This document shows, piece by piece, positions 1 through 9,716 of a stretch of DNA of 9,716 bases. The translations under genes and the position numbers were made by a program. Origin of the DNA: a virus (Duplodnaviria > Heunggongvirae > Uroviricota > Caudoviricetes); IMG/VR virus record IMGVR_UViG_3300029504_000019; one strand, given 5' to 3'. The notes beneath the pieces were generated by a model. It was not told the DNA's origin, did not search any database, and saw nothing but the letters and a program-made list of their open reading frames with translations. Each line of letters opens with the position of its first letter. Positions within the stretch are counted from its first letter, which is position 1.

Positions 1-2474
1 ATCTGCAAGGTCCGGCAACTTCCGACTCCGGTATAGAAGTTAACCAGAATATAGCTGTCGCCAGAGCGGGTGACATTGTAAGCGCCTGATTCGGCATTCC
101 ATGGAACGCCCCCATCCGCATCGGCATACGCATCCGTTGCTCTTCTGGCAAAAGCAGCCACATGCGCGGCGGTTAAAGTGATATCAGTAGAACCATCAAA
201 TGGAACACCGGATATTTTTCTTGCAGTCTGAAGTTTTGTAGCAGTTGCAGCATTACCAGTGGTGTTCTGATTACCCGTAGTGTTTACACCTGGAAGGTTA
301 ATATTTGCAGAACCGTCGAAAACAACTCCACCGATAGATCTTGCCGTCTGCAATTTCGTGGCTGTACTTGCATTACCATCCAATGAACCAGTTAATCCAC
401 CTGTAACAGACAACGGACCTGAAACTGTTCCTCCGGTTGTTGGCAGTGCTCCAATATCTAACGGCGTCGGTTTCTGATGTGTGCTATACATCGTATAAAC
501 AACACCATCGGTAACGCTGGAAGGCTTACTCGCTGAATATGTTGGCGATGTATAAATAGAAACTGTCGCATTTGCAGTACAATCCCAATGGATATTTACA
601 CGAGTCGCATAATTGCCAATCTCAACGTAAATATCATATGTATCGCCGGATGTGTTGATCCAGGCGAAATTCGTTAATCCGACGGCTGTACGCTTCCACA
701 AAGCCCCGGTAATTCCTTTGGGGTTTCCATTGCCTGCTCGTAGAACCAGTTCTGAAATGCCTGCCTGATGTGGGGAACCGACGTTGTAACCAGCGCCACC
801 AATCAATGCGATGTAAACGATGGAACTCGCTTGTGGCATGGTAACCGTAGCCAGTTTGAACCACCCAGCCCCGCCAGAGAAAGACATCGTTACTGAATTT
901 AAAGTACCAATATCTTTCGGCGTTAATGTTATATCCGCAGTCAGTGCTTTTCCGTTAACTTTTCGGTTAGATGGCACCCTGCTATTCGCATTGTCATTGG
1001 CTGCTTTAACTGCTTTTGGCGTTGCGGCCAGCGATTCACTGGTGCTATCAACAGCACTGCTAAGTTTCACAACACCTTTAGTTGTAAGGCTTGCGTCTTC
1101 CATCGCAACTGCACCGGCAATCTCTTCAGCACGATCAGCAGCAGCTTCCGCACGGGTCGCAGCGGATTCAGCAGCAGTTTTGCTCTGAGATGCTGCCGTC
1201 GCACTGCCTGCCGCCTCTGTTGCTTTCGTGGATGCCGTCGTGGCGCTGCCCTTCGCTGCTGACGTCTGTCTGGTCGCCTCATCTTTTGAAGCAGACGCAG
1301 ATGATGCCGATGACGCTGCCGAACTGGCGGACGATGCGGCTGCCGTTTTTGAGGATTCTGCACGGGTTTCCGACGCTTTCGCATTCGTTTCGGATGTCTT
1401 CGCTGCGGAAGCAGACCTCGCTGCTGCGCTGGCCTGTACAGCGGCTTCGCCAGCCTTCGTTGTGGCTGTTGAAGCGGACGATGCAGCACTTTCTGCCGAT
1501 TTTCCGGCGGCGGTGGCACTGGCTGAGGCCTGCCCGGCACTTGTTGACGCGGCACTGGCAGACGACGCAGCCGCTGTTTTTGAGCCTGCCGCAGCTGAGG
1601 CACTCTGTCCCGCTGCCGTTTCAGAAGCCTTGGCGTTCGTCTCGGACGTTTTTGCCGCCTTCGCAGAATTTGCTGTCGCCGTTGCCGAGGAAGCTGCGCT
1701 GCTGGCGCTCGAGGCTGCGCTCGTTTCTGATGATTTTGCCGCCTCTTTTGAAGCCGACGCATCCCGGGCTGAGGTGGCAGCTTCTGACGCTTTCGTGGTC
1801 GCGGTGGATGCTGAAGTGGCTGCTGATTGTTGTGACGCTGCCGCATTCGTTTCTGACGTTTTTGCCGCAGCGGCACTGGTGGCCGCCGCGCTTTTTGAGG
1901 ACTCTGCAGCGGCAGCACTTTTTGATGCTTCAGTGGCCTTTGCTGATGCCGTTCCTGCGCTGGAAGACGCTGACTGAGCCGACGAAGCGGCCTGTCCGGC
2001 TGACGTGCTGGCTGCGCGTGCTGAGCCTGCAGCATCAGTCGCATGGGTTGCCGCCTCACGGGCAGATGTGCCGGCATCGCCGGCTGACTTCTTCGCGGCT
2101 GCCGTGTTCTGTGCCACTGCGGACGCGTTACGCGCCACCTCTTCCACCATCAGTTCAAAACGGCGCAGTGCCTCTGGCCGGACATCATCCTCCGTCATTG
2201 CACCGAGGAAATCATTCAGTGTGCCCGGCTTTGAGTCCTCATATACGGTGATAATCCCGGCGTGTGACGGCGGGAATCCCTCCACCAACAGACTGACGCT
2301 GTACTGACCATACTCGACGTCCATTGTGTAACGCCCGGCTTCATCCGGGTTTTCTGAGGCCACTGTGTTCACCACCACCGTGGTGCTGTTGCGCCTGGCC
2401 TTTAGCTGAATGGTGCAGTTTTGTATCGGCTTACCTGCGCCATCTTTCAGTACACCTGAAATCCGTACTGCCAT
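1..2474 (-). CDS. stf: Side tail fiber protein Stf, 5' portion (ATG at 2474..2472; at least 824 codons, no stop before window start)
   Basis: Hand translation of the minus strand from the ATG at 2474 is open to position 3; an in-frame stop lies just upstream at 2516..2514. The N-terminus (MAVRISGVLKDGAGKPIQNCTIQLKARRNSTTVVVNTV...YGQYSV...GFPPSHAG...TVYED) matches my recollection of the lambda/Rac Stf N-terminus; it is followed by a long Ala/Ser/Thr-rich region and the conserved tail-fiber motif TTKGVVKLSSAVDSTSESLAATPKAVK. GGGGGG sits 3 nt upstream of the ATG as a Shine-Dalgarno. Not in the supplied ORF track because it lacks a stop in the window. Confidence 0.85.
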   Translation of the reverse strand, partial: MAVRISGVLKDGAGKPIQNCTIQLKARRNSTTVVVNTVASENPDEAGRYTMDVEYGQYSVSLLVEGFPPSHAGIITVYEDSKPGTLNDFLGAMTEDDVRPEALRRFELMVEEVARNASAVAQNTAAAKKSAGDAGTSAREAATHATDAAGSARAASTSAGQAASSAQSASSSAGTASAKATEASKSAAAAESSKSAAATSAAAAKTSETNAAASQQSAATSASTATTKASEAATSARDASASKEAAKSSETSAASSASSAASSATATANSAKAAKTSETNAKASETAAGQSASAAAGSKTAAASSASAASTSAGQASASATAAGKSAESAASSASTATTKAGEAAVQASAAARSASAAKTSETNAKASETRAESSKTAAASSASSAASSASSASASKDEATRQTSAAKGSATTASTKATEAAGSATAASQSKTAAESAATRAEAAADRAEEIAGAVAMEDASLTTKGVVKLSSAVDSTSESLAATPKAVKAANDNANSRVPSNRKVNGKALTADITLTPKDIGTLNSVTMSFSGGAGWFKLATVTMPQASSIVYIALIGGAGYNVGSPHQAGISELVLRAGNGNPKGITGALWKRTAVGLTNFAWINTSGDTYDIYVEIGNYATRVNIHWDCTANATVSIYTSPTYSASKPSSVTDGVVYTMYSTHQKPTPLDIGALPTTGGTVSGPLSVTGGLTGSLDGNASTATKLQTARSIGGVVFDGSANINLPGVNTTGNQNTTGNAATATKLQTARKISGVPFDGSTDITLTAAHVAAFARRATDAYADADGGVPWNAESGAYNVTRSGDSYILVNFYTGVGSCRTLQ
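190..370 (-). repeat. Tandem ~40-codon tail-fiber repeat inside stf (two copies of the motif G-N-A-[AS]-T-A-T-K-L-Q-T-A-R-x-I-[SG]-G-V-x-F-D-G-S-x-[DN]-I)
   Basis: Stf residues about 700-720 (NASTATKLQTARSIGGVVFDGSANINL) and 740-765 (NAATATKLQTARKISGVPFDGSTDITL) repeat at a 40-residue spacing; the underlying DNA segments around 210-250 and 330-370 are visibly similar. Confidence 0.5.
1125..2117 (-). repeat. Ala/Ser/Thr-rich low-complexity coding region of stf with dispersed ~30-bp near-identical direct repeats
   Basis: Stf residues about 120-450 are almost entirely A/S/T/K/E. The motif AAKTSETNA recurs at residues about 202, 272 and 357, matching near-identical DNA blocks at 1381-1409, 1633-1665 and 1846-1876. 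The region is GC-rich and open in several frames on both strands, which explains the spurious 249-, 336- and 386-aa track ORFs. Confidence 0.6.
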
Positions 2475-2485
2475 ATTCCCCCCAC

Positions 2486-2511
2486 AAAAAAGCCCGCCTG
2501 AACCGGCGGGC
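2486..2511 (-). terminator. Rho-independent terminator downstream of the lom fragment (minus strand)
   Basis: Read on the minus strand, a perfect 7-bp GC-rich stem (2511..2505 pairing with 2498..2492, 6-nt loop) is followed immediately by a run of six T (2491..2486). It lies 28 nt after the lom stop and just upstream of the stf Shine-Dalgarno and ATG. Confidence 0.6.
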
Positions 2512-2538
2512 TGTCATAACACTGTGTTACCTGGCTAA

Positions 2539-2814
2539 TCAGAATTTATAACCGACACCAACGATGAAACTGTTGGTACGCCAGTCACCGCTGCCGGAGC
2601 CTTCATAAGCGACGTCAACGGCCACGGATTCGGTCGGGTTAAACTGCACGCCAGCTCCCCACGCCAGAGACGTGTTGCTGTGGCGACCGTCATCACTTCC
2701 GGTCAGCACATCGTGCGTTTTCCCCTTGTTGTCAGTTACGCGGATATAATCCCCGGAGAAAGTCGACACACGGCTGTAAGCCATAACCAGTTGCAGCAAC
2801 CTTTGACGCTCGTT
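2539..2814 (-). pseudogene. lom: lom (Lom/Ail/OmpX-family outer membrane protein), 3' fragment only; signal peptide and N-terminal barrel strands absent
   Basis: The translation ends ...SLAWGAGVQFNPTESVAVDVAYEGSGSGDWRTNSFIVGVGYKF, matching the lambda Lom C-terminus (...AYEGSGSGDWRTDGFIVGVGYKF) and the terminal Phe typical of beta-barrel outer membrane proteins. The frame is closed by a stop at 2817..2815 and the track ORF begins at a TTG, so only about 85-90 of roughly 200 codons are present. Confidence 0.8.
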
Positions 2815-2987
2815 TCACACCTGCCGAACTGTGAATATTGAATCCCTCCAGACGCCCCAACACGCCCTCACGCAGTAGCTGTTCAGTGCCGGATTCATTC
2901 ACTTTAAACAATACAGACTGTTTTCCGCGCAAATTAGCAATGGCAGTGGAGCCAAGCACCATCTGCAGATCGGTTGTCGGTGCGCCG

Positions 2988-3284
2988 TTAACCAGCCTCA
3001 TAAATTGCCAGCTCGTTCAGCTCTCCGGAGAGACTGGTAAACATGCTGTTAATAGCAGTGCGGTTAACCTTTCTGACGCTCGCCAGAAGTGACTCCAGGC
3101 GCTTAACGGTAAAATTACCTGGATCGAGGCTGTCCAGTGCTATCAGCAGGCGAGCAGTAAGTTCCGCATCGCTGTCATTCAGTATTTTCACCATTCTGGC
3201 AGCCACGCCAGTGCTATAGCGGGATATCCAGACTGCATGAGCAATTGATTCATCACGCAGCCGTTCATTCACGGTTTGCATCAT
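2988..3284 (-). pseudogene. Stub (98 codons) of the gene that follows portal, possibly the N-terminus of a head-morphogenesis/minor capsid protein, ending prematurely
   Basis: Its ATG (3284 or 3281) overlaps the portal stop (3267..3265) by about 20 nt, typical translational coupling in a morphogenesis operon, but the frame closes after 98 codons and no capsid or tail genes follow. The functional assignment is a guess from position. Confidence 0.35.
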
Positions 3285-4671
3285 TGATTTCCATCAGCAT
3301 TACACTCTGATTTTTTAATTCATCGATCACTTCCTCTGGACGGGAATCCTGATCGATAAATTTCAACGCCTGCAACACCCGAACCGCATCAATCTGACGT
3401 ATATCACCGCCCTGACGCAATGACTGAACAGCCAGCGCGGAGGATGAGTCAAACACCTGGGCAGATACATCCAGTTCAGTGCGCACATCCACATTGCCAC
3501 CGCAACTCTCTCCGATCCATTCCGCCATTATCTGGAGAATATTATCGAGGGCATCTTCGAGGGAGTTCGCCATTGTATAAAGCGGCGAGTTTTCCTGCAT
3601 TCGCTCTTCATTAGTCTGATCAACAGATTTGGTGGATGTATTTTCAGCACGCAGAAGTTTAGCGCCGGCATGACGCATCTGATTTTCCAGCTTCTCAAGT
3701 GATGTTTCGCCAGATTCTATCGCTGCGCCACTATGTTCAACATATTCGAGGCCATTTTTTGTTCTGTCCTCAAAAATCGTAGCGGTGGATGCACCAACCG
3801 TCAGTTCTTCATTCCTGTCCAGCCCGTAGGCCACCAGCAATGGAACGCGGGTAACATGAAGAATATTGTCCTGCTCGCTCTGGCTTTGCCAGTGCTTGAT
3901 ATTCAGCAAGCCAAGATTAAGCAATGGCGGTGTACCACGCATAAATCCTGTTTTCTTCGTGTACAGTGTTACCAGAGGAATATCATCACGGCTGGTATTC
4001 CATGACTCATGAAGCGTCCAGACAGATTCGCCATTAGTGCCTTCGCTACGTCGATAAATTTCAACTCGACGGGGCATAATATGGCGGATCTGCTCCACCT
4101 TCTTCTGCCCGAAATCATCACCATCAATAATGATGACCTCTTTTATACGCAAATCAGTGAGAACAACTTTCCCTTTTTCAACTTTCGATTTCCATCCAAT
4201 AACCTGGCGTGGATTCAGCATCGTAACGTACGGACGACCACCGGTCGCGTTTTCATCGGCTTTTGTACGAATCTCTTTCATATCCGTTCGTGGATAGTCC
4301 ACCAGCGCATGTGCCACACCATACTGAAATGCGAGGCTGAAAAATTGCTGCGCCCACACATCCAGTCGGCTCCCCTCCATGTCGATATTTTCTGCATATT
4401 CCCTGATTTTTGCCGGCGTTTCCTCACTCAATACTGTCGGCTCTGCAAATATGCGCCCAATATTTTGCTTGATGCTTTCTTCATACACAGGAAGTAGCGT
4501 AGCCACAGACAGGCGTTTTTTATAAGCGTCTTCATCTTCGTTAGGCCATTTTGGGAGATAATTTTCCCCCTGCCTGCGCATTTCAAGCGTACCGCCCATC
4601 AGTGCGTCGTTAATATCCCACGCCTCCAGCATATCGTTATAGTCGAGGTTGGGTGTTGATATATCAGCCAT
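3265..4671 (-). CDS. Probable phage portal protein (468 aa)
   Basis: Its ATG (4671..4669) lies 2 nt after the large-terminase stop (TAA 4676..4674); the size of about 470 aa, acidic C-terminal region and position directly after TerL are typical for portals. No motif-level confirmation is possible without a search. Confidence 0.6.
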   Translation of the reverse strand: MADISTPNLDYNDMLEAWDINDALMGGTLEMRRQGENYLPKWPNEDEDAYKKRLSVATLLPVYEESIKQNIGRIFAEPTVLSEETPAKIREYAENIDMEGSRLDVWAQQFFSLAFQYGVAHALVDYPRTDMKEIRTKADENATGGRPYVTMLNPRQVIGWKSKVEKGKVVLTDLRIKEVIIIDGDDFGQKKVEQIRHIMPRRVEIYRRSEGTNGESVWTLHESWNTSRDDIPLVTLYTKKTGFMRGTPPLLNLGLLNIKHWQSQSEQDNILHVTRVPLLVAYGLDRNEELTVGASTATIFEDRTKNGLEYVEHSGAAIESGETSLEKLENQMRHAGAKLLRAENTSTKSVDQTNEERMQENSPLYTMANSLEDALDNILQIMAEWIGESCGGNVDVRTELDVSAQVFDSSSALAVQSLRQGGDIRQIDAVRVLQALKFIDQDSRPEEVIDELKNQSVMLMEINDANRE

Positions 4672-4673
4672 AA

Positions 4674-5981
4674 TTAAATCCGAAGTGATGTGACTCTTCC
4701 GGTCGGTTTGACAATAGGGAATTGCTTAACGATGAAATAACCTCCGGCATCATTCGGGTGATCATTGCCAGATTTTTTATCAGGCTCCCCCTTCTCATCC
4801 CAGACCTGTTGCTCCAGAGATTCGGCATATAACGGGCAACGCTTCACATTAACTTTATAGCGACGCTCACCATTGGCATTGCAGAACATTGCATTCATTG
4901 AGTTAACGCGATCTTTTACTGGCGGGTTCGAGCTGTTCACCACAACGTTAAAACCAGCCTGCTTAAGCTGGGCTATATCCGTCGTACTTGCGTTACTTGA
5001 TTTTCTGGAATCCCCGGAAGCATCTGGATAAATATAAATTTCCCTCACTTTCCGGTAATCATTCCCATCATACAGCCAGAAGCGTTCTTTAATGATGCGG
5101 ATCATATCCGGCGTATCGTAGGCATTGATGATTTCAGTTACCGCACATGGAAGCCCCAAACGCAGCACATGGACGATTCCCGCCATCTTTCCAACGTTAA
5201 AATCCATCCCAATATAAATCGGCTCCCCTGGCTGCTCCACTTCTTCGCAATTATTCAGTTTCCGGTCAAACTGATGGTAAACAGTACCACTTGTCAGGTT
5301 AGTAAACTGTCCTCGAAGATAGGCTTTAATCAGCTCTGGAGGGTATGATTCAAGAAGCGAAGGAATGTAATCTGCTGGCAGGTTCTTTTCATTATCGAAA
5401 GTAGATGCCTGCACCAGACCATACAGTGAGGCCAGCTCTGTTTTTTCACGCACGGCTTTAACAAACTGCTCGTAGACAAATTTGAATCCCTCCGGCGTGG
5501 TTGTAACGTCAATACCGTTGCGAAGTCCATCAATCTTATAACGCATACGTGCAATTATCTTGCGCCACGCCGTTCTGGCTTTTTCCTTCGGCAAAATGTC
5601 CAGTTCATCCACCAACGCATTACCAATTTTGAAACCGACGATCGTTTGTGGCTTCTCCATCGATCTGCAGATAGTGGTTCCCCGATACTGGCGTCCGTAA
5701 TAAAAGTGAACCTCTTTATTTCCCTCATTAATTTTTACGTTCAATCCCCAGTCAGCAGCAACTTCTTCCACTGTAAGGTAAAAAATATCGCGAATTTGGG
5801 GATACGTTGGCGCAAAATATCCCTGATTTATACCTGGATGCTCCCAAATCCCCTTGCATATGCCGCCACAACCAACCCATGTTTTGCCCGAGCCAAAACC
5901 AGCAATATAGGCTTTAAATTTATGGGGCATTGAAAGAAATCGCGCCTGAGGCACATTAAGCGTCGGAGAGATCATCTTCAT
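4674..5981 (-). CDS. Terminase large subunit (ATPase plus RNase H-like nuclease)
   Basis: Walker A motif (YIAGFGSGKTW) near the N-terminus, Walker B-like (NALVDELDI), and a C-terminal nuclease domain with acidic motifs (IYIGMDFN, YIYPDASGD, GNDHPNDAGGYF). The track start at 5984 is GTG; ATG codons follow at 5981 and 5975, and AAGGAG sits 8 nt upstream of the 5975 ATG, so the true start may be 5975. Confidence 0.9.
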   Translation of the reverse strand: MKMISPTLNVPQARFLSMPHKFKAYIAGFGSGKTWVGCGGICKGIWEHPGINQGYFAPTYPQIRDIFYLTVEEVAADWGLNVKINEGNKEVHFYYGRQYRGTTICRSMEKPQTIVGFKIGNALVDELDILPKEKARTAWRKIIARMRYKIDGLRNGIDVTTTPEGFKFVYEQFVKAVREKTELASLYGLVQASTFDNEKNLPADYIPSLLESYPPELIKAYLRGQFTNLTSGTVYHQFDRKLNNCEEVEQPGEPIYIGMDFNVGKMAGIVHVLRLGLPCAVTEIINAYDTPDMIRIIKERFWLYDGNDYRKVREIYIYPDASGDSRKSSNASTTDIAQLKQAGFNVVVNSSNPPVKDRVNSMNAMFCNANGERRYKVNVKRCPLYAESLEQQVWDEKGEPDKKSGNDHPNDAGGYFIVKQFPIVKPTGRVTSLRI

Positions 5982-6684
5982 CACTCCTTACTCTGGCATC
6001 AACCACATTAATATTGATCGCCACAGGCTGGGGATGTTCATTATCTTCCACCGTTTCGATCTCTTTGCGCAGCTTCTGGTTTTCCATTCTGCGCCGTTCA
6101 ATTTCCAGTTCCTGTAGCCGTTTATCTGCACATAAAGCCCCGCCAGCAGAAAACAAACGCAACAATTCACGCCGGGCGGCAGCCTTATCCTCCAGCAGGA
6201 TCTCAACGCCGAATTTTCCGAATTTTGCCCCTGCATATAATTGCCGCGCATCCCCATCAAGCAGAGTGGTATCAGCCATATAAAGCTGTCCCGTTCCCTC
6301 ACCGCAGCACTTCGGGCAGTCCGGATTGGGTATGGCGTTATCAACAAAGCCGAGGCCTCCATATTCCGGTTCGGGTTTGCCATCTCTGGAAGCCTGCGCC
6401 GCTGCCTTGTCGAATTCTGCTATATCGCGCCACTGGTAGAGATGATTCTCGCCCCAGCAATAACGGCAGTTAACACGGCGAAATTGTGCAAGCTGATTGG
6501 GGTCGGCCAGGACAATAGCCATCAACTGACTCACTAGTAAATCCAGGTCTGCGGTATAGCGTTTCTGGTACTGATTGCGGAAGTAGCTGATAGCGCGAAA
6601 AACCCTGGCATTTCTAAGCATACGACTGGCGTTGCTGTTAGCTGTCGCACCTTGCCCCTCATAACCGGCTACCGGGCAAAACAT
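5956..6684 (-). CDS. Candidate terminase small subunit / DNA-packaging protein with a Cys4 zinc-ribbon-like motif, coiled-coil segment and acidic tail
   Basis: A 242-aa ORF directly upstream of TerL, overlapping it by about 25 nt. It contains CRYCWGENH (Cys 73/76) and CPKCCGEG (Cys 123/126/127), a charged heptad-like segment (QELEIERRRMENQKLRKEIE) and an acidic C-terminus (SDEDDLSDA). The call rests on position and architecture, not on recognised homology. Confidence 0.5.
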   Translation of the reverse strand: MFCPVAGYEGQGATANSNASRMLRNARVFRAISYFRNQYQKRYTADLDLLVSQLMAIVLADPNQLAQFRRVNCRYCWGENHLYQWRDIAEFDKAAAQASRDGKPEPEYGGLGFVDNAIPNPDCPKCCGEGTGQLYMADTTLLDGDARQLYAGAKFGKFGVEILLEDKAAARRELLRLFSAGGALCADKRLQELEIERRRMENQKLRKEIETVEDNEHPQPVAININVVDARVRSDEDDLSDA

Positions 6685-6723: not shown

Positions 6724-7089
6724 TCAGGGAGACACAAAATCAGCATTGATTAGGTCCGACAGCTCCATCCGCAACAGATCTTCATCCCAGCCAGCATTCA
6801 TCGGCAGGCGATTATCTGCCAGGCGGTACGCCTTTTTCTGCTCATCCGTCAGGCCAGACAGAACAATGACCGGAACAGAATCCATTTTGAGCATTTCAGC
6901 CGCCATAACACGACCGTGACCCGCAATAATTTCGCCCTTTTCGTCAATCAGCACCGGATTAGTCCAGCCGAATTGCTTAATACTTTCTACCAGTTGTGCC
7001 ACCTGCTCAGGGCTGTGCGTCCTGGCGTTGTGCGCATACGGTGACAATTCTTGTAATGGGCGATAGACTATCTTTAATTTCTCGCTCAT
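6724..7089 (-). CDS. ParB-like nuclease domain protein (ParB N-terminal / sulfiredoxin fold), 121 aa
   Basis: The translation has the ParB N-terminal signature around GWTNPVLIDEKGEIIAGHGR (conserved GxGR arginine finger) and a start context of AAGG then ATG. Small ParB-like proteins at this position are common in Rac-like prophages (the K-12 counterpart is ynaK), but I do not assert identity. Confidence 0.75.
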   Translation of the reverse strand: MSEKLKIVYRPLQELSPYAHNARTHSPEQVAQLVESIKQFGWTNPVLIDEKGEIIAGHGRVMAAEMLKMDSVPVIVLSGLTDEQKKAYRLADNRLPMNAGWDEDLLRMELSDLINADFVSP

Positions 7090-7226: not shown

Positions 7227-8684
7227 TTAGGAGCGCCAAAAAAAACCTGAAAACAATATAATAACAGGATAAATTTCAAGGCGACCAAGAATCATAGCTA
7301 TGCACATTAAACATTTTGCAATGTCATTAAGCACTCCGAATGACGATGCAGTAGCCCCAAAACCTAATCCCATATTATTAATACATGCAGCCACTGTTGC
7401 AAATGATGTAAGAAAATCATATCCCATACCATTTAACACCAGTATAAAAAACACCGTGAAGAGAGTATAAAGAAAAAAGAAACTCCATACAGACCTCATT
7501 ACACGATCTGTAACTATCTTCCCTCCTACATTTACACTCAACAACGCTCTGGGATGAGAAAGCTGATTTATCTCGTGTTTGCTTTGTTTGAAAAGTATAA
7601 GAAATCGAAGTGACTTAATTCCACCACAAGTTGAACCTATACATCCCCCAAAGAAACTTGACAACAGCAAAAACACTATCGTGTGCGTGGGCCAACTTGC
7701 ATAATCCTGCGTAGCTAAACCATTATCAGTGAGCATGGAGCTGGCAAGAAAAAACGAATGAATAAAACTTCCATGCAAGTCATACATACCTATATGCCAG
7801 ACCTGGAAAGAGGTAACAATGATCACCCCTAAGGCTATTAACAGAAAGAAACGAAGTTCAATATCTCTGATTAAAGGTTTTATCGTTTTCCTGCTAATAA
7901 CAATATACCAAAGAGTGAAGTTGAAAGCCGATAGCAGGGAAAAAGAACCAGCCACCAGCTCAACCAAATAGTTATTAAAATATCCGATACTCTCGCTATG
8001 AGTTGAGAAACCACCAAGCGAAACTGTGGAAATCCCGTGACAAATAGCATCAAACAAAGGCATTCCTGCAAGTCTATAACAGACAATACAAGCAATACCT
8101 AATAAAGAATAAGTTATCCACAGTGTCCGTGACGTATCGGCCAGGCGGGGAGTGAGTTTGTCATCCTTAAATGGCCCCGGCATTTCTGACTGATAAAGCT
8201 TTGCACCACCAATACCCAATAATGGCAATACAGCAACCGCCAGAACAATAACTCCTAAACCACCTATAAAATTTAACTGTGACCGATAGTACAAATATGC
8301 CCGAGGTAATGAACTAACATCATCAATTACAGTTGCTCCTGTTGTTGTTATTCCAGAAACCCCTTCAAACAGAGCATCAATGAACGTTAAATTAAGTTCT
8401 GAGTCAATCCATAAAGGGAATGCACTAATAACAGAAAACAAAATCCAAAACATTACAATTATAATAAACCCATCACGGGTACGTAATTGAATGCCAGATT
8501 TCTTAGTTGTATACCACGCTCCGCCACCAATGCAAAAAAATATAACGAAAGTTATAAAGAAAACGAACAGGCTTTTTTCTTTATAAAACAATGCTACAAC
8601 CATTGGTGGCAACATTGAAAGACTATAGAGCCAAACCAGGAACCCACACATATGAGTAACAACTCTTACATGAGATGTATTCAT
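7227..8684 (-). CDS. trkG: TrkG/TrkH-family potassium uptake transporter (about 485 aa from the ATG at 8684)
   Basis: Polytopic membrane protein with TrkH/KtrB selectivity-filter-like glycine motifs (GVSGITTTGATV, TVSLGGFSTH, CINNMGLGFG); the sequence from MNTSHVRVVTHMCGFLVWLYSL matches my recollection of E. coli TrkG. The track start at 8702 is a TTG six codons upstream; the ATG at 8684 is preferred. The gene is visibly AT-rich relative to its neighbours. Confidence 0.9.
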   Translation of the reverse strand: MNTSHVRVVTHMCGFLVWLYSLSMLPPMVVALFYKEKSLFVFFITFVIFFCIGGGAWYTTKKSGIQLRTRDGFIIIVMFWILFSVISAFPLWIDSELNLTFIDALFEGVSGITTTGATVIDDVSSLPRAYLYYRSQLNFIGGLGVIVLAVAVLPLLGIGGAKLYQSEMPGPFKDDKLTPRLADTSRTLWITYSLLGIACIVCYRLAGMPLFDAICHGISTVSLGGFSTHSESIGYFNNYLVELVAGSFSLLSAFNFTLWYIVISRKTIKPLIRDIELRFFLLIALGVIIVTSFQVWHIGMYDLHGSFIHSFFLASSMLTDNGLATQDYASWPTHTIVFLLLSSFFGGCIGSTCGGIKSLRFLILFKQSKHEINQLSHPRALLSVNVGGKIVTDRVMRSVWSFFFLYTLFTVFFILVLNGMGYDFLTSFATVAACINNMGLGFGATASSFGVLNDIAKCLMCIAMILGRLEIYPVIILFSGFFWRS

Positions 8685-8685
8685 A

Positions 8686-8760
8686 TCTAAATATTCTTTC
8701 AATTATAACCACCTTGCTGCAATATTATGATTATACTGTATAAAATTTAACTCCTCTTAG
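8686..8760 (-). promoter_or_regulatory. AT-rich region upstream of trkG with candidate sigma70 -10 hexamers (possible autonomous promoter)
   Basis: The 119-bp gap between the Rz stop and trkG carries two perfect TATAAT hexamers on the minus strand (8707..8702 and 8735..8730), but neither has a convincing -35 element at 16-18 bp. Speculative. Confidence 0.25.
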
Positions 8761-8821: not shown

Positions 8822-9286
8822 TTACTTTAAACACTGCTCGGTTATGTATTGCTGAGCACCTTCAAGTTGGGCCTGCATCATTACCAGTCGTTCCCGGAGG
8901 GTGAAATAATCCCGTTCAGCGGTGTCTGCCAGTCGGGGGGAGGCTGCATTATCCACGCCGGAGGCGGTGGTGGCTTCACGCACTGACTGACAGACTGCTT
9001 TGATGTGCAACCGACGACGACCAGCGGCAACATCATCACGCAGAACATCATTTTCAGCTTTCGCATCAGCTAACTCCTTCGTGTATTTTGCATCGAGCGC
9101 AGCAACATCACGCTGACGCATCTGCATGTCAGTAATTGCCGCGTTCGCCAGCTTCAGTTCTCTGGCATTTTTGTCGCGCTGTTCTTTGTAGGCGATGGCG
9201 TTATCACGGTAATGATTAACACCCCATGACAGGCAGACGACGATGCAGATAACCAGAGCGGAGATAATCGCGGTTACTCTGTTCAT
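8822..9286 (-). CDS. Rz: Rz i-spanin (inner-membrane spanin subunit)
   Basis: Near-identical over most of its length to lambda Rz as I recall it ([21 protein letters not shown]...[44 protein letters not shown]...[45 protein letters not shown]...). N-terminal transmembrane helix then coiled coil. The ATG at 9286..9284 overlaps the endolysin stop (TGA 9285..9283) as ATGA; the track start at 9298 is a GTG four codons upstream. Confidence 0.9.
8881..9066 (-). CDS. Rz1: Rz1 o-spanin (outer-membrane lipoprotein), fully embedded in Rz in the +1 frame
   Basis: 61-aa ORF (ATG 9066..9064) with a lipobox (LVVVGC), a Pro-rich tract ([19 protein letters not shown]), and the classic embedded-gene arrangement inside Rz. 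Confidence 0.85.
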
Positions 9287-9716
9287 TGCTGACCCCACAA
9301 ACAGATTTCACGCTCAATCTCACGACGAGTCATGAGACCTTTCCATTGCTTACCGCCAGCATATGTCCAGCGACGTAGCTGATCACATGCGCCTTTGATA
9401 TCGCCCTGGTTTATTTTGCGAAGAAGCGTCGATGTTCTGAAATTGCCAGCACCCACGTTGTAAACGAATGAGTAAAGAGCGCCGCGCGTTGTTTCCGGTA
9501 TATCGACTTTGATGTACGGGTTAATTTGTCTGGCGACCGTGGCAAGGTCTTTATTCAAGAGTGTTTTGCATTCTGCTTTGGTATACGTTTTACCGAGCAT
9601 GATGTCTTTTCCTGTATGCCCGTGACATACAGTCCATACACCAACAATATCTTTGTATGGTATGTAGCTGACACCTTCCAGACCATCGTTACCACTTGGG
9701 CCAGTGATTAACACTG
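9283..9716 (-). CDS. R: Endolysin, T4-lysozyme-type (GH24) of the P21 R / SAR-endolysin kind; 5' end (SAR signal-anchor) lies outside the window
   Basis: The translation (...[36 protein letters not shown]...CLWGQQ) matches my recollection of the P21 R21 SAR endolysin, with the Glu/Asp/Thr catalytic positions (GLEG, YKDIVG, WTVCHG) present. The frame is open to the window edge, and the first track codon is an internal GTG (Val), so the gene is truncated by the window and not biologically. Confidence 0.9.

Follow-up and report, generated by a model that had tools for sequence, protein, structure and literature searches.

A predicted beta-sandwich module, shared with many phage fibres, in the shaft of a Rac-type side tail fibre protein

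Why should the thin, repetitive shaft of a phage side tail fibre contain a stretch rich in aromatic and aliphatic residues? The question is raised by the side tail fibre gene (stf) at one end of a 9,716-nucleotide stretch of viral DNA (IMG/VR virus record IMGVR_UViG_3300029504_000019, Caudoviricetes; the whole stretch is hereafter called the window). A first-pass annotation made from the sequence alone had marked positions 465–902 as encoding a globular, beta-rich insertion in the Stf shaft. We conclude that Stf residues ~526–661, as modelled, form a discrete, compact beta-sandwich domain of ~136 residues. By analogy with a solved phage-type trimer, we give a probability of about 0.6 to the reading that this self-contained sandwich is an interchangeable block of trimeric fibres, primarily architectural in role and arranged as a trimeric knob.

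A discrete beta-rich domain in the Stf shaft

Stf residue n corresponds to window position 2474 − 3(n − 1) on the minus strand. The marked region, 465–902 on that strand, is exactly residues 525–670, and the peptide quoted for it is present there. The C-terminal 268 residues of Stf lie beyond the window start; the full protein has 1092 amino acids in the near-identical genome NZ_CP072802 (99.9% identity over 2600 nucleotides). Indeed, the first 2600 nucleotides of the window are 99.9% identical to loci in many Escherichia coli genomes, in which stf is annotated as ‘prophage tail fiber N-terminal domain-containing protein’ and is followed by tfaR and pinR. The protein is a lambda/Rac-type Stf, having a phage_tail_N N terminus, a gp37-like tip and tfaR directly downstream.

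The composition of residues 525–670 differs sharply from that of the Ala/Ser-rich coiled coil that precedes them, in line with the first-pass annotation. Aromatic residues make up 11.0% of residues 525–670 and 0% of residues 135–470, aliphatic residues 21.9% and 2.1%, and alanine, serine and threonine together 32% and 73%, respectively. The annotation had also counted two cysteines, which was incorrect: the region has one (C632), and the only other downstream, C820, belongs to a later domain. Because C632 is not conserved and is tyrosine in most homologues, no disulphide role is implied, and we ruled out a disulphide-stabilised domain.

An exhaustive homologue search of 1.84 billion representative proteins returned 188 protein clusters at E ≤ 1e-3; for 79 of these, E was 1e-30 or lower. 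Cutting out the matching segments left 61 non-redundant sequences, of which 43, at 28–80% identity, were aligned (alignment A1). Given Stf residues 517–678 together with this alignment, AlphaFold2 produced a compact, all-beta domain of ten strands (mean predicted local distance difference test score, 94.6; predicted template modelling score, 0.88; no segment below 50). The strands occupy construct residues 10–145, equivalent to Stf residues 526–661, and the boundaries first proposed were accurate to within a few residues. Since the model is compact and globular, a mere continuation of the fibrous shaft was ruled out. Nor is the stretch a chance pattern, given the number and strength of the matching clusters and the confident fold.

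We found no family to which the domain could be assigned, in agreement with the first-pass annotation. Pfam and NCBIfam scans of the domain, of a 241-amino-acid construct and of the whole Stf gave no match within residues 525–670, and scanning the 43 aligned homologues against Pfam at E ≤ 1 yielded nothing beyond isolated, scattered chance matches. Among Protein Data Bank sequences, the single sequence matched phage Mu fibre protein S alone, and there only through the flanking SESLAATPKAVK motif. The 43-homologue profile found nothing meaningful there, and the Pantoea stewartii WceF entry, 6TGF, was undetected at E ≤ 10.

Distribution among phage fibres and exchange at the stfR locus

The same module turned up in unrelated fibres, spread over many clusters, several PHROG tail-fibre families and 299 phage records. 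PHROGs 3299, 21552, 6722, 11029 and 22609 matched over the whole 146 amino acids, with E values from 5e-99 to 2.7e-22 and at different profile positions. By tblastn, the module was present in 299 of 50,697 phage records, mostly from Escherichia, Salmonella, Shigella, Acinetobacter and Citrobacter phages. These carriers include T-even-type gp37, FelixO1-like fibres, a T5-like L-shaped fibre and ST64B, with tblastn identities of 31–59% for the T-even, FelixO1-like and T5-like groups. The copy in Escherichia phage phi458 (OP434518) is 100% identical to that of this Stf. The A1 profile located the module at residues 818–953 of T2 gp37, the distal subunit of the long tail fibre (E = 4.5e-46), and at residues 313–462 of the L-shaped fibre of the T5-like phage 3sent1 (E = 7.2e-60); it found none in T4 gp34, gp35, gp36 or gp37. 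A full-length profile match places the Stf domain with the T2 gp37-type internal fibre module, and T2 gp37 and its T-even, FelixO1-like and T5-like relatives are true sequence homologues with the module in an internal position. The settings differ from that of Stf, however, in that the T2 carrier is a myovirus long fibre and the T5-like carrier a siphovirus L-shaped fibre. The literature we searched held no structure or function for this part of T2 gp37.

The carrier proteins of the 188 clusters range from 54 to 2682 amino acids, and in those that look complete the module lies mostly at 10–80% of the length. Its partner domains vary (phage_tail_N with Collar, Gp34_trimer, Gp10_C, gp37_C and C-terminal Peptidase_S74), two proteins (P0074 and P0104) have two copies each, and many homologues have in common with this Stf only a segment running from residues ~518–538 to 660–675. 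In the divergent clusters P0203 (797 amino acids) and P0205 (1008 amino acids), the module stands at the extreme C terminus (ending in YTYTQDDIN and YSYSQDDIE, respectively), placing it at the distal end rather than as a bead on the shaft.

Module DNA was present in 582 of 5426 complete E. coli genomes and at 117 plasmid places, with plasmids of ~100–115 kb among the matches listed. Examples are NZ_CP017847.1 (14727–15164) and NZ_CP169226.1 (42037–42474), where the genes are annotated as phage tail or tail fibre protein; the plasmid copies are 88–98% identical among the matches listed. This distribution suggests that the module has been exchanged between lambdoid prophages and phage-plasmids. 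The module is a frequent, portable and widely shuffled building block of phage fibres. It is common in E. coli genomes, on phage-plasmid-sized replicons and in T2, yet it lacks a Pfam or NCBIfam model, and defining the domain would improve the annotation of tail-fibre genes.

Comparison with the Rac prophage of E. coli K-12 showed that the module is one of at least two alternatives at this place in the fibre. Only residues 1–528 (87% identity) and 740–1092 (84%) of Stf aligned with K-12 StfR by blastp, and the module profile had no significant match in that protein (best stretch, E = 0.6). Residues ~520–780 of K-12 StfR (b1372; L005:5050-8412) are an unrelated cassette of ~260 residues, at precisely the position that the module and one repeat occupy in this Stf. 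With different mid-fibre cassettes between near-identical flanks, the Rac stfR locus is polymorphic for the cassette, and the alignment gap makes the module part of a mid-fibre exchange cassette, residues 529–739. The upstream breakpoint coincides with the first strand of the domain and the downstream one, residue 740, with the start of the second GNA-TATKLQTAR...FDGS repeat, such that the first GNASTATKLQTAR...FDGS fibre repeat belongs to the cassette together with the module and a linker.

Phage lambda offers a further comparison. Stf residues 1–499 align with lambda orf-401 (82% identity over the first 326, 54% over 315–499) and residues 863–1092 are 69% identical to lambda orf-314; the module profile had no match in the lambda stf region (E ≥ 0.2). 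Stf shares its family and locus with K-12 StfR and lambda Stf, including phage_tail_N, collar and C-terminal fibre repeats, lom upstream, and tfa and pin downstream. By contrast, neither of those proteins has the module, and lambda Stf passes from its hinge to its distal domain. The lambda alignment ends at Stf residue 499, which is residue 394 of orf-401. Cryo-electron tomography of Ur-lambda placed the hinge of lambda Stf at residues 394–422, where the proximal coiled coil gives way to the distal domain (PMC12617516). In Stf, the module is directly distal to a Phage_fiber_2 motif that aligns with this end of orf-401, the site of the hinge; the motif also matches phage Mu fibre protein S (5yvq/8ju3).

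Recombination-prone conserved motifs at the flanks had been raised as a possibility, and this was borne out in part. The conserved peptide TPxDIG occurs on both sides, encoded by the two copies of a 17-nucleotide direct repeat that are identical at 15 of 17 bases, in frame, and 456 nucleotides (152 codons) apart. A regular-expression search for PT..D(I/V)GA found the motif on the C-terminal flank of 22 of the 61 diverse homologues and on the N-terminal flank of 7; it is frequent, not universal, and the expression missed this Stf’s own N-flank variant. A precise-deletion allele of the kind that recombination between the TPxDIG sites would leave did not appear: when a synthetic 445-nucleotide deletion junction was searched against the 5426 E. 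coli genomes, the best 40 matches all consisted of two pieces spanning 901 nucleotides, with the module present. It is plausible that the 17-nucleotide repeat is a junction for in-frame recombination or engineering, and so short a two-copy repeat could also be a by-product of the conserved peptide motif. For fibre engineers, the flanking TPxDIG sites, 152 codons apart, are a natural in-frame junction at which to lengthen or re-model fibres.

Fold relatives and the role of the module

In a fold search of BFVD, a collection of predicted viral structures, T-even-type Gp37 fibre homologues (31–42% identity) superposed at TMq 0.77–0.90. More distant matches were exopolysaccharide depolymerases of Erwinia, Pantoea and Xanthomonas phages, which are relatives of WceF, and assorted tail fibres. 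The Stf module has the all-beta sandwich fold of these depolymerases and of WceF (6TGF) and scores highly in the structural comparison; only 8–10% of residues are identical when the structures are aligned, and the 43-homologue profile revealed no sequence homology to WceF. Residues 531–667 of WceF are an eight-stranded jelly-roll beta-sandwich that each chain forms separately; it follows two turns of triple beta-helix, after which the chains intertwine again, and no function has been assigned to it (PMC7949094). The setting in Stf can be likened to this one, in which an all-beta domain of ~140 residues stands once per chain of a phage-type homotrimer, between intertwined segments. The two differ in that the WceF domain follows the catalytic beta-helix of a tailspike-like enzyme, whereas the Stf module is flanked by a coiled coil and fibre repeats in a thin fibre; the Stf model also has ten strands compared with the eight described for WceF.

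Part of this is already known: WceF provides a solved domain of related fold, models of other fibres have been noted to contain such a fold, and the module is present in the model phage T2. As it stands, the module is ordinary phage-fibre mosaicism. What is new is modest, namely a module without a curated family, structure or assigned function that marks a cassette polymorphism in Rac-type StfR. Our literature searches on Stf, StfR and gp37 gave no description of it and turned up only gp526, a fibre of Klebsiella phage RaK2 in which a WceF-like sandwich had been noted previously (PMC10253068).

By analogy with WceF, the module may work as follows. In a homotrimeric Stf, each chain would part from the intertwined shaft directly past the hinge-like Phage_fiber_2 motif, fold its own sandwich and rejoin the shaft at the TPxDIG and GNA-TATKLQTAR repeats. 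With each chain folding separately, three sandwiches would surround the fibre axis in a bead- or knob-like arrangement, as in the solved WceF trimer. Such a knob would serve as a stable unit of folding and trimer packing that determines how long the distal half-fibre is and what geometry it takes. A possible secondary role is weak binding of sugars from the side, and receptor specificity proper would stay with the C-terminal collar and the HxH needle tip.

The pattern of conservation fits this architectural role. Where conservation among homologues is 90% or more, the residues are only Gly, Asn, Gln, Arg, Pro and Tyr, and they cluster in the loop and hairpin motifs PQ (547–548), GGxGxNxG..Q (559–570), RxGNxxPxG (579–587) and NxSGDxYDIY (607–616); the C-terminal third of the domain is variable. 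The conserved positions hold across the Escherichia, Salmonella, Pseudomonas and metagenomic sequences in the alignment, and Acinetobacter phage fibres also have the module. Judged from these sequences, conservation across hosts with unrelated surface glycans suits a constraint on packing or folding better than a host-specific receptor site, whose loops would be expected to vary.

Several points weigh against an architectural knob. The knob arrangement is proposed from a predicted monomer by analogy with WceF, the conserved loops could face either the axis or the solvent, and the match to 6TGF is assigned to the sandwich at 531–667 from its size and all-beta content. The literature searched contains no experiment on the module. 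The fold class is common to lectins and carbohydrate-binding modules, which makes a binding role conceivable; moreover, P0203 and P0205 carry the module where a receptor-binding head would sit. A tentative, less probable alternative is accordingly that the module is an accessory lectin-like domain, three of which would bind a surface glycan (lipopolysaccharide core, O-antigen or capsule) laterally and provide a second, low-affinity attachment besides the tip. The conserved residues Q548, N564, Q570, R579, N582, Y613 and Y616 could line such a site, and a cassette that differs between otherwise near-identical StfR alleles is what one would expect of a specificity element. WceF itself associates with its polysaccharide in a lectin-like way, a behaviour not ascribed to this domain (PMC7949094), and fibres with an internal receptor-binding domain in addition to that at the tip are documented (PMC11990801). 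However, the best-conserved residues are the same across hosts with unrelated glycans, unlike specificity loops, and the module is usually far from the tip. Resemblance to lectin and carbohydrate-binding sandwiches (galectins, CBM4/6/61) and to the C-terminal sandwiches of Acinetobacter tailspikes (6c72, 6e1r, 8oq0, 5w5p) was at the level of generic fold similarity, and we identified no common sequence motifs or known sugar-binding residues in these comparisons. We consider it rather unlikely that the module represents a so far overlooked family of domains that bind sugars or surfaces laterally, a second attachment site on the shaft of many enterobacterial, Acinetobacter and Pseudomonas phage fibres including T2 gp37. 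If the module did bind glycans, it would be a second specificity determinant in fibres whose host range is now ascribed to the tip alone; if it bound laterally, host range would be tuned, independently of the tip, by mid-fibre cassette swaps such as the one that separates this Stf from K-12 StfR.

The conserved surface loops, being independent of host genus, would also suit a conserved protein partner, and the module might then be a docking platform for a branching second fibre, an adhesin or a tail-fibre assembly protein. The T5-like L-shaped fibre carries the module, and branched fibres occur in T5-like phages (DT57C LtfA/LtfB). T-shaped fibres have also been described (PMC11990801). Docking is nevertheless improbable, as no partner gene is conserved among the lambdoid, T-even, T5-like, FelixO1-like and phage-plasmid contexts, which differ in their neighbours. 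In addition, North and colleagues are said to have found in 2019 that Tfa-type chaperones act on the C-terminal tip. The first-pass annotation had further suggested a depolymerase or esterase, or an intramolecular chaperone, and neither suggestion fared well. For an enzyme speaks the fact that the closest folds occur inside polysaccharide-degrading, tailspike-like proteins (WceF and the phage exopolysaccharide depolymerases), but catalysis in WceF is located in the central beta-helix and not in the sandwich (PMC7949094). The Stf module has ~136 residues with no beta-helix or SGNH fold, no catalytic signature and no enzyme-family match in Pfam or NCBIfam. Conservation stays below 90% at every Ser, His, Asp and Glu; of the acidic residues, only Asp611 (88%) and Asp614 (77%) are fairly conserved, and an enzymatic role is very improbable. 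Least credible is a chaperone that would promote trimerisation and thereafter be cleaved or no longer required. In its favour, WceF constructs are affected by the removal of flanking domains, and trimer folding can be nucleated by beta-sandwich domains. Known intramolecular chaperones (Peptidase_S74), however, are C-terminal and self-cleaving, whereas this module is internal, and at least eight homologous proteins have both the module and a separate C-terminal S74 domain (PF13884). A Pfam scan found no PF13884 match in this Stf, and this stf has a tfa assembly gene of its own downstream.

Organisation of stf and the surrounding genes

The features of the window are collected in Table 1. All large open reading frames (ORFs) lie on the minus strand.

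Table 1. Features of the window and of the stf gene within it
Feature	Positions	Strand	Basis or remark
Lysozyme-like ORF	9283–9714	minus	identified by eye from translation
Rz-like ORF	8822–9298	minus	identified by eye from translation
TrkH-family potassium transporter	7227–8702	minus	Pfam, E 5e-145
ParB_N protein	6724–7089	minus	
Terminase small subunit	5956–6684	minus	
Terminase large subunit	4674–5984	minus	
DUF4055 portal-type protein	3265–4671	minus	
Two short ORFs after portal gene, no family match	2988–3284 and 2732–3001	minus	
Lom protein, C-terminal 81 residues only	2539–2799	minus	Pfam Ail_Lom profile positions 119–199
Side tail fibre gene stf, residues 1–824 of 1092	1–2474	minus	translation; runs off window at position 1
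N-terminal tail-attachment domain, residues 1–134	2073–2474	minus	Pfam phage_tail_N PF08400, E 1.4e-71
Ala/Ser/Thr-rich proximal coiled-coil shaft, residues 135–470	1065–2072	minus	73% Ala+Ser+Thr, no aromatics; aligns to lambda orf-401
Phage_fiber_2 repeat (VDSTSESLAATPKAVK...), residues 475–502	969–1052	minus	Pfam PF03406, E 6.4e-11
Upstream 17-nucleotide direct repeat copy, encodes TPKDIG, N-terminal edge of module	907–923	minus	repeat search; peptide LTPKDIGTLN
Module: predicted all-beta sandwich, ten strands, residues 526–661	492–899	minus	
Downstream 17-nucleotide direct repeat copy, encodes TPLDIG, C-terminal edge of module	451–467	minus	repeat search; peptide KPTPLDIGALP
Exchange cassette relative to K-12 StfR, residues 529–739	258–890	minus	blastp against K-12 StfR
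Two distal shaft repeats GNA(S/A)TATKLQTAR..GV.FDGS..I.L, residues 700–727 and 740–767	174–377	minus	regular-expression positions

The lambda equivalent of the Ala/Ser/Thr-rich shaft is the proximal coiled coil (PMC12617516). At the distal end, the Phage_fiber repeats of Stf fell just under the Pfam cut-off (19.4 versus 20 bits), and Collar (PF07484, E = 6.2e-12) was found at residues 866–913, outside the window. Between the fibre repeats and Collar lies a second aromatic-rich stretch (16.7% Phe, Trp and Tyr) with no Pfam assignment, which covers window positions 1–149 on the minus strand (residues 776–824) and continues to residue ~865. It holds C820 and is common to K-12 StfR, as part of the 84%-identical block 740–1092.

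Several long ORFs in other frames (1067–2077 on the minus strand; 1091–2251 and 1228–1977 on the plus strand) overlap the region encoding the Ala/Ser-rich coiled coil. Their translations are of low complexity, being Pro/Arg/Gln-rich, Leu/Pro/Ser-rich or Ala-rich, which suggests that they are by-products of repetitive GC-rich codons and not genes.

Upstream of stf, the truncated Lom abuts the two short ORFs at 2732–3001 and 2988–3284. No tail genes, J included, lie between the head genes and lom in the window, and the prophage therefore looks tail-less, with its Stf an orphan. By contrast, gpJ precedes lom in NZ_CP072802. The stretch 2300–3400 was contiguous in 0 of the 5426 complete E. coli genomes; coverage at the best place reached 75%, in two pieces. 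The TrkH-family gene, which stands between the lysis genes and the ParB and terminase genes, is the trkG cargo gene, also present in the K-12 Rac prophage.

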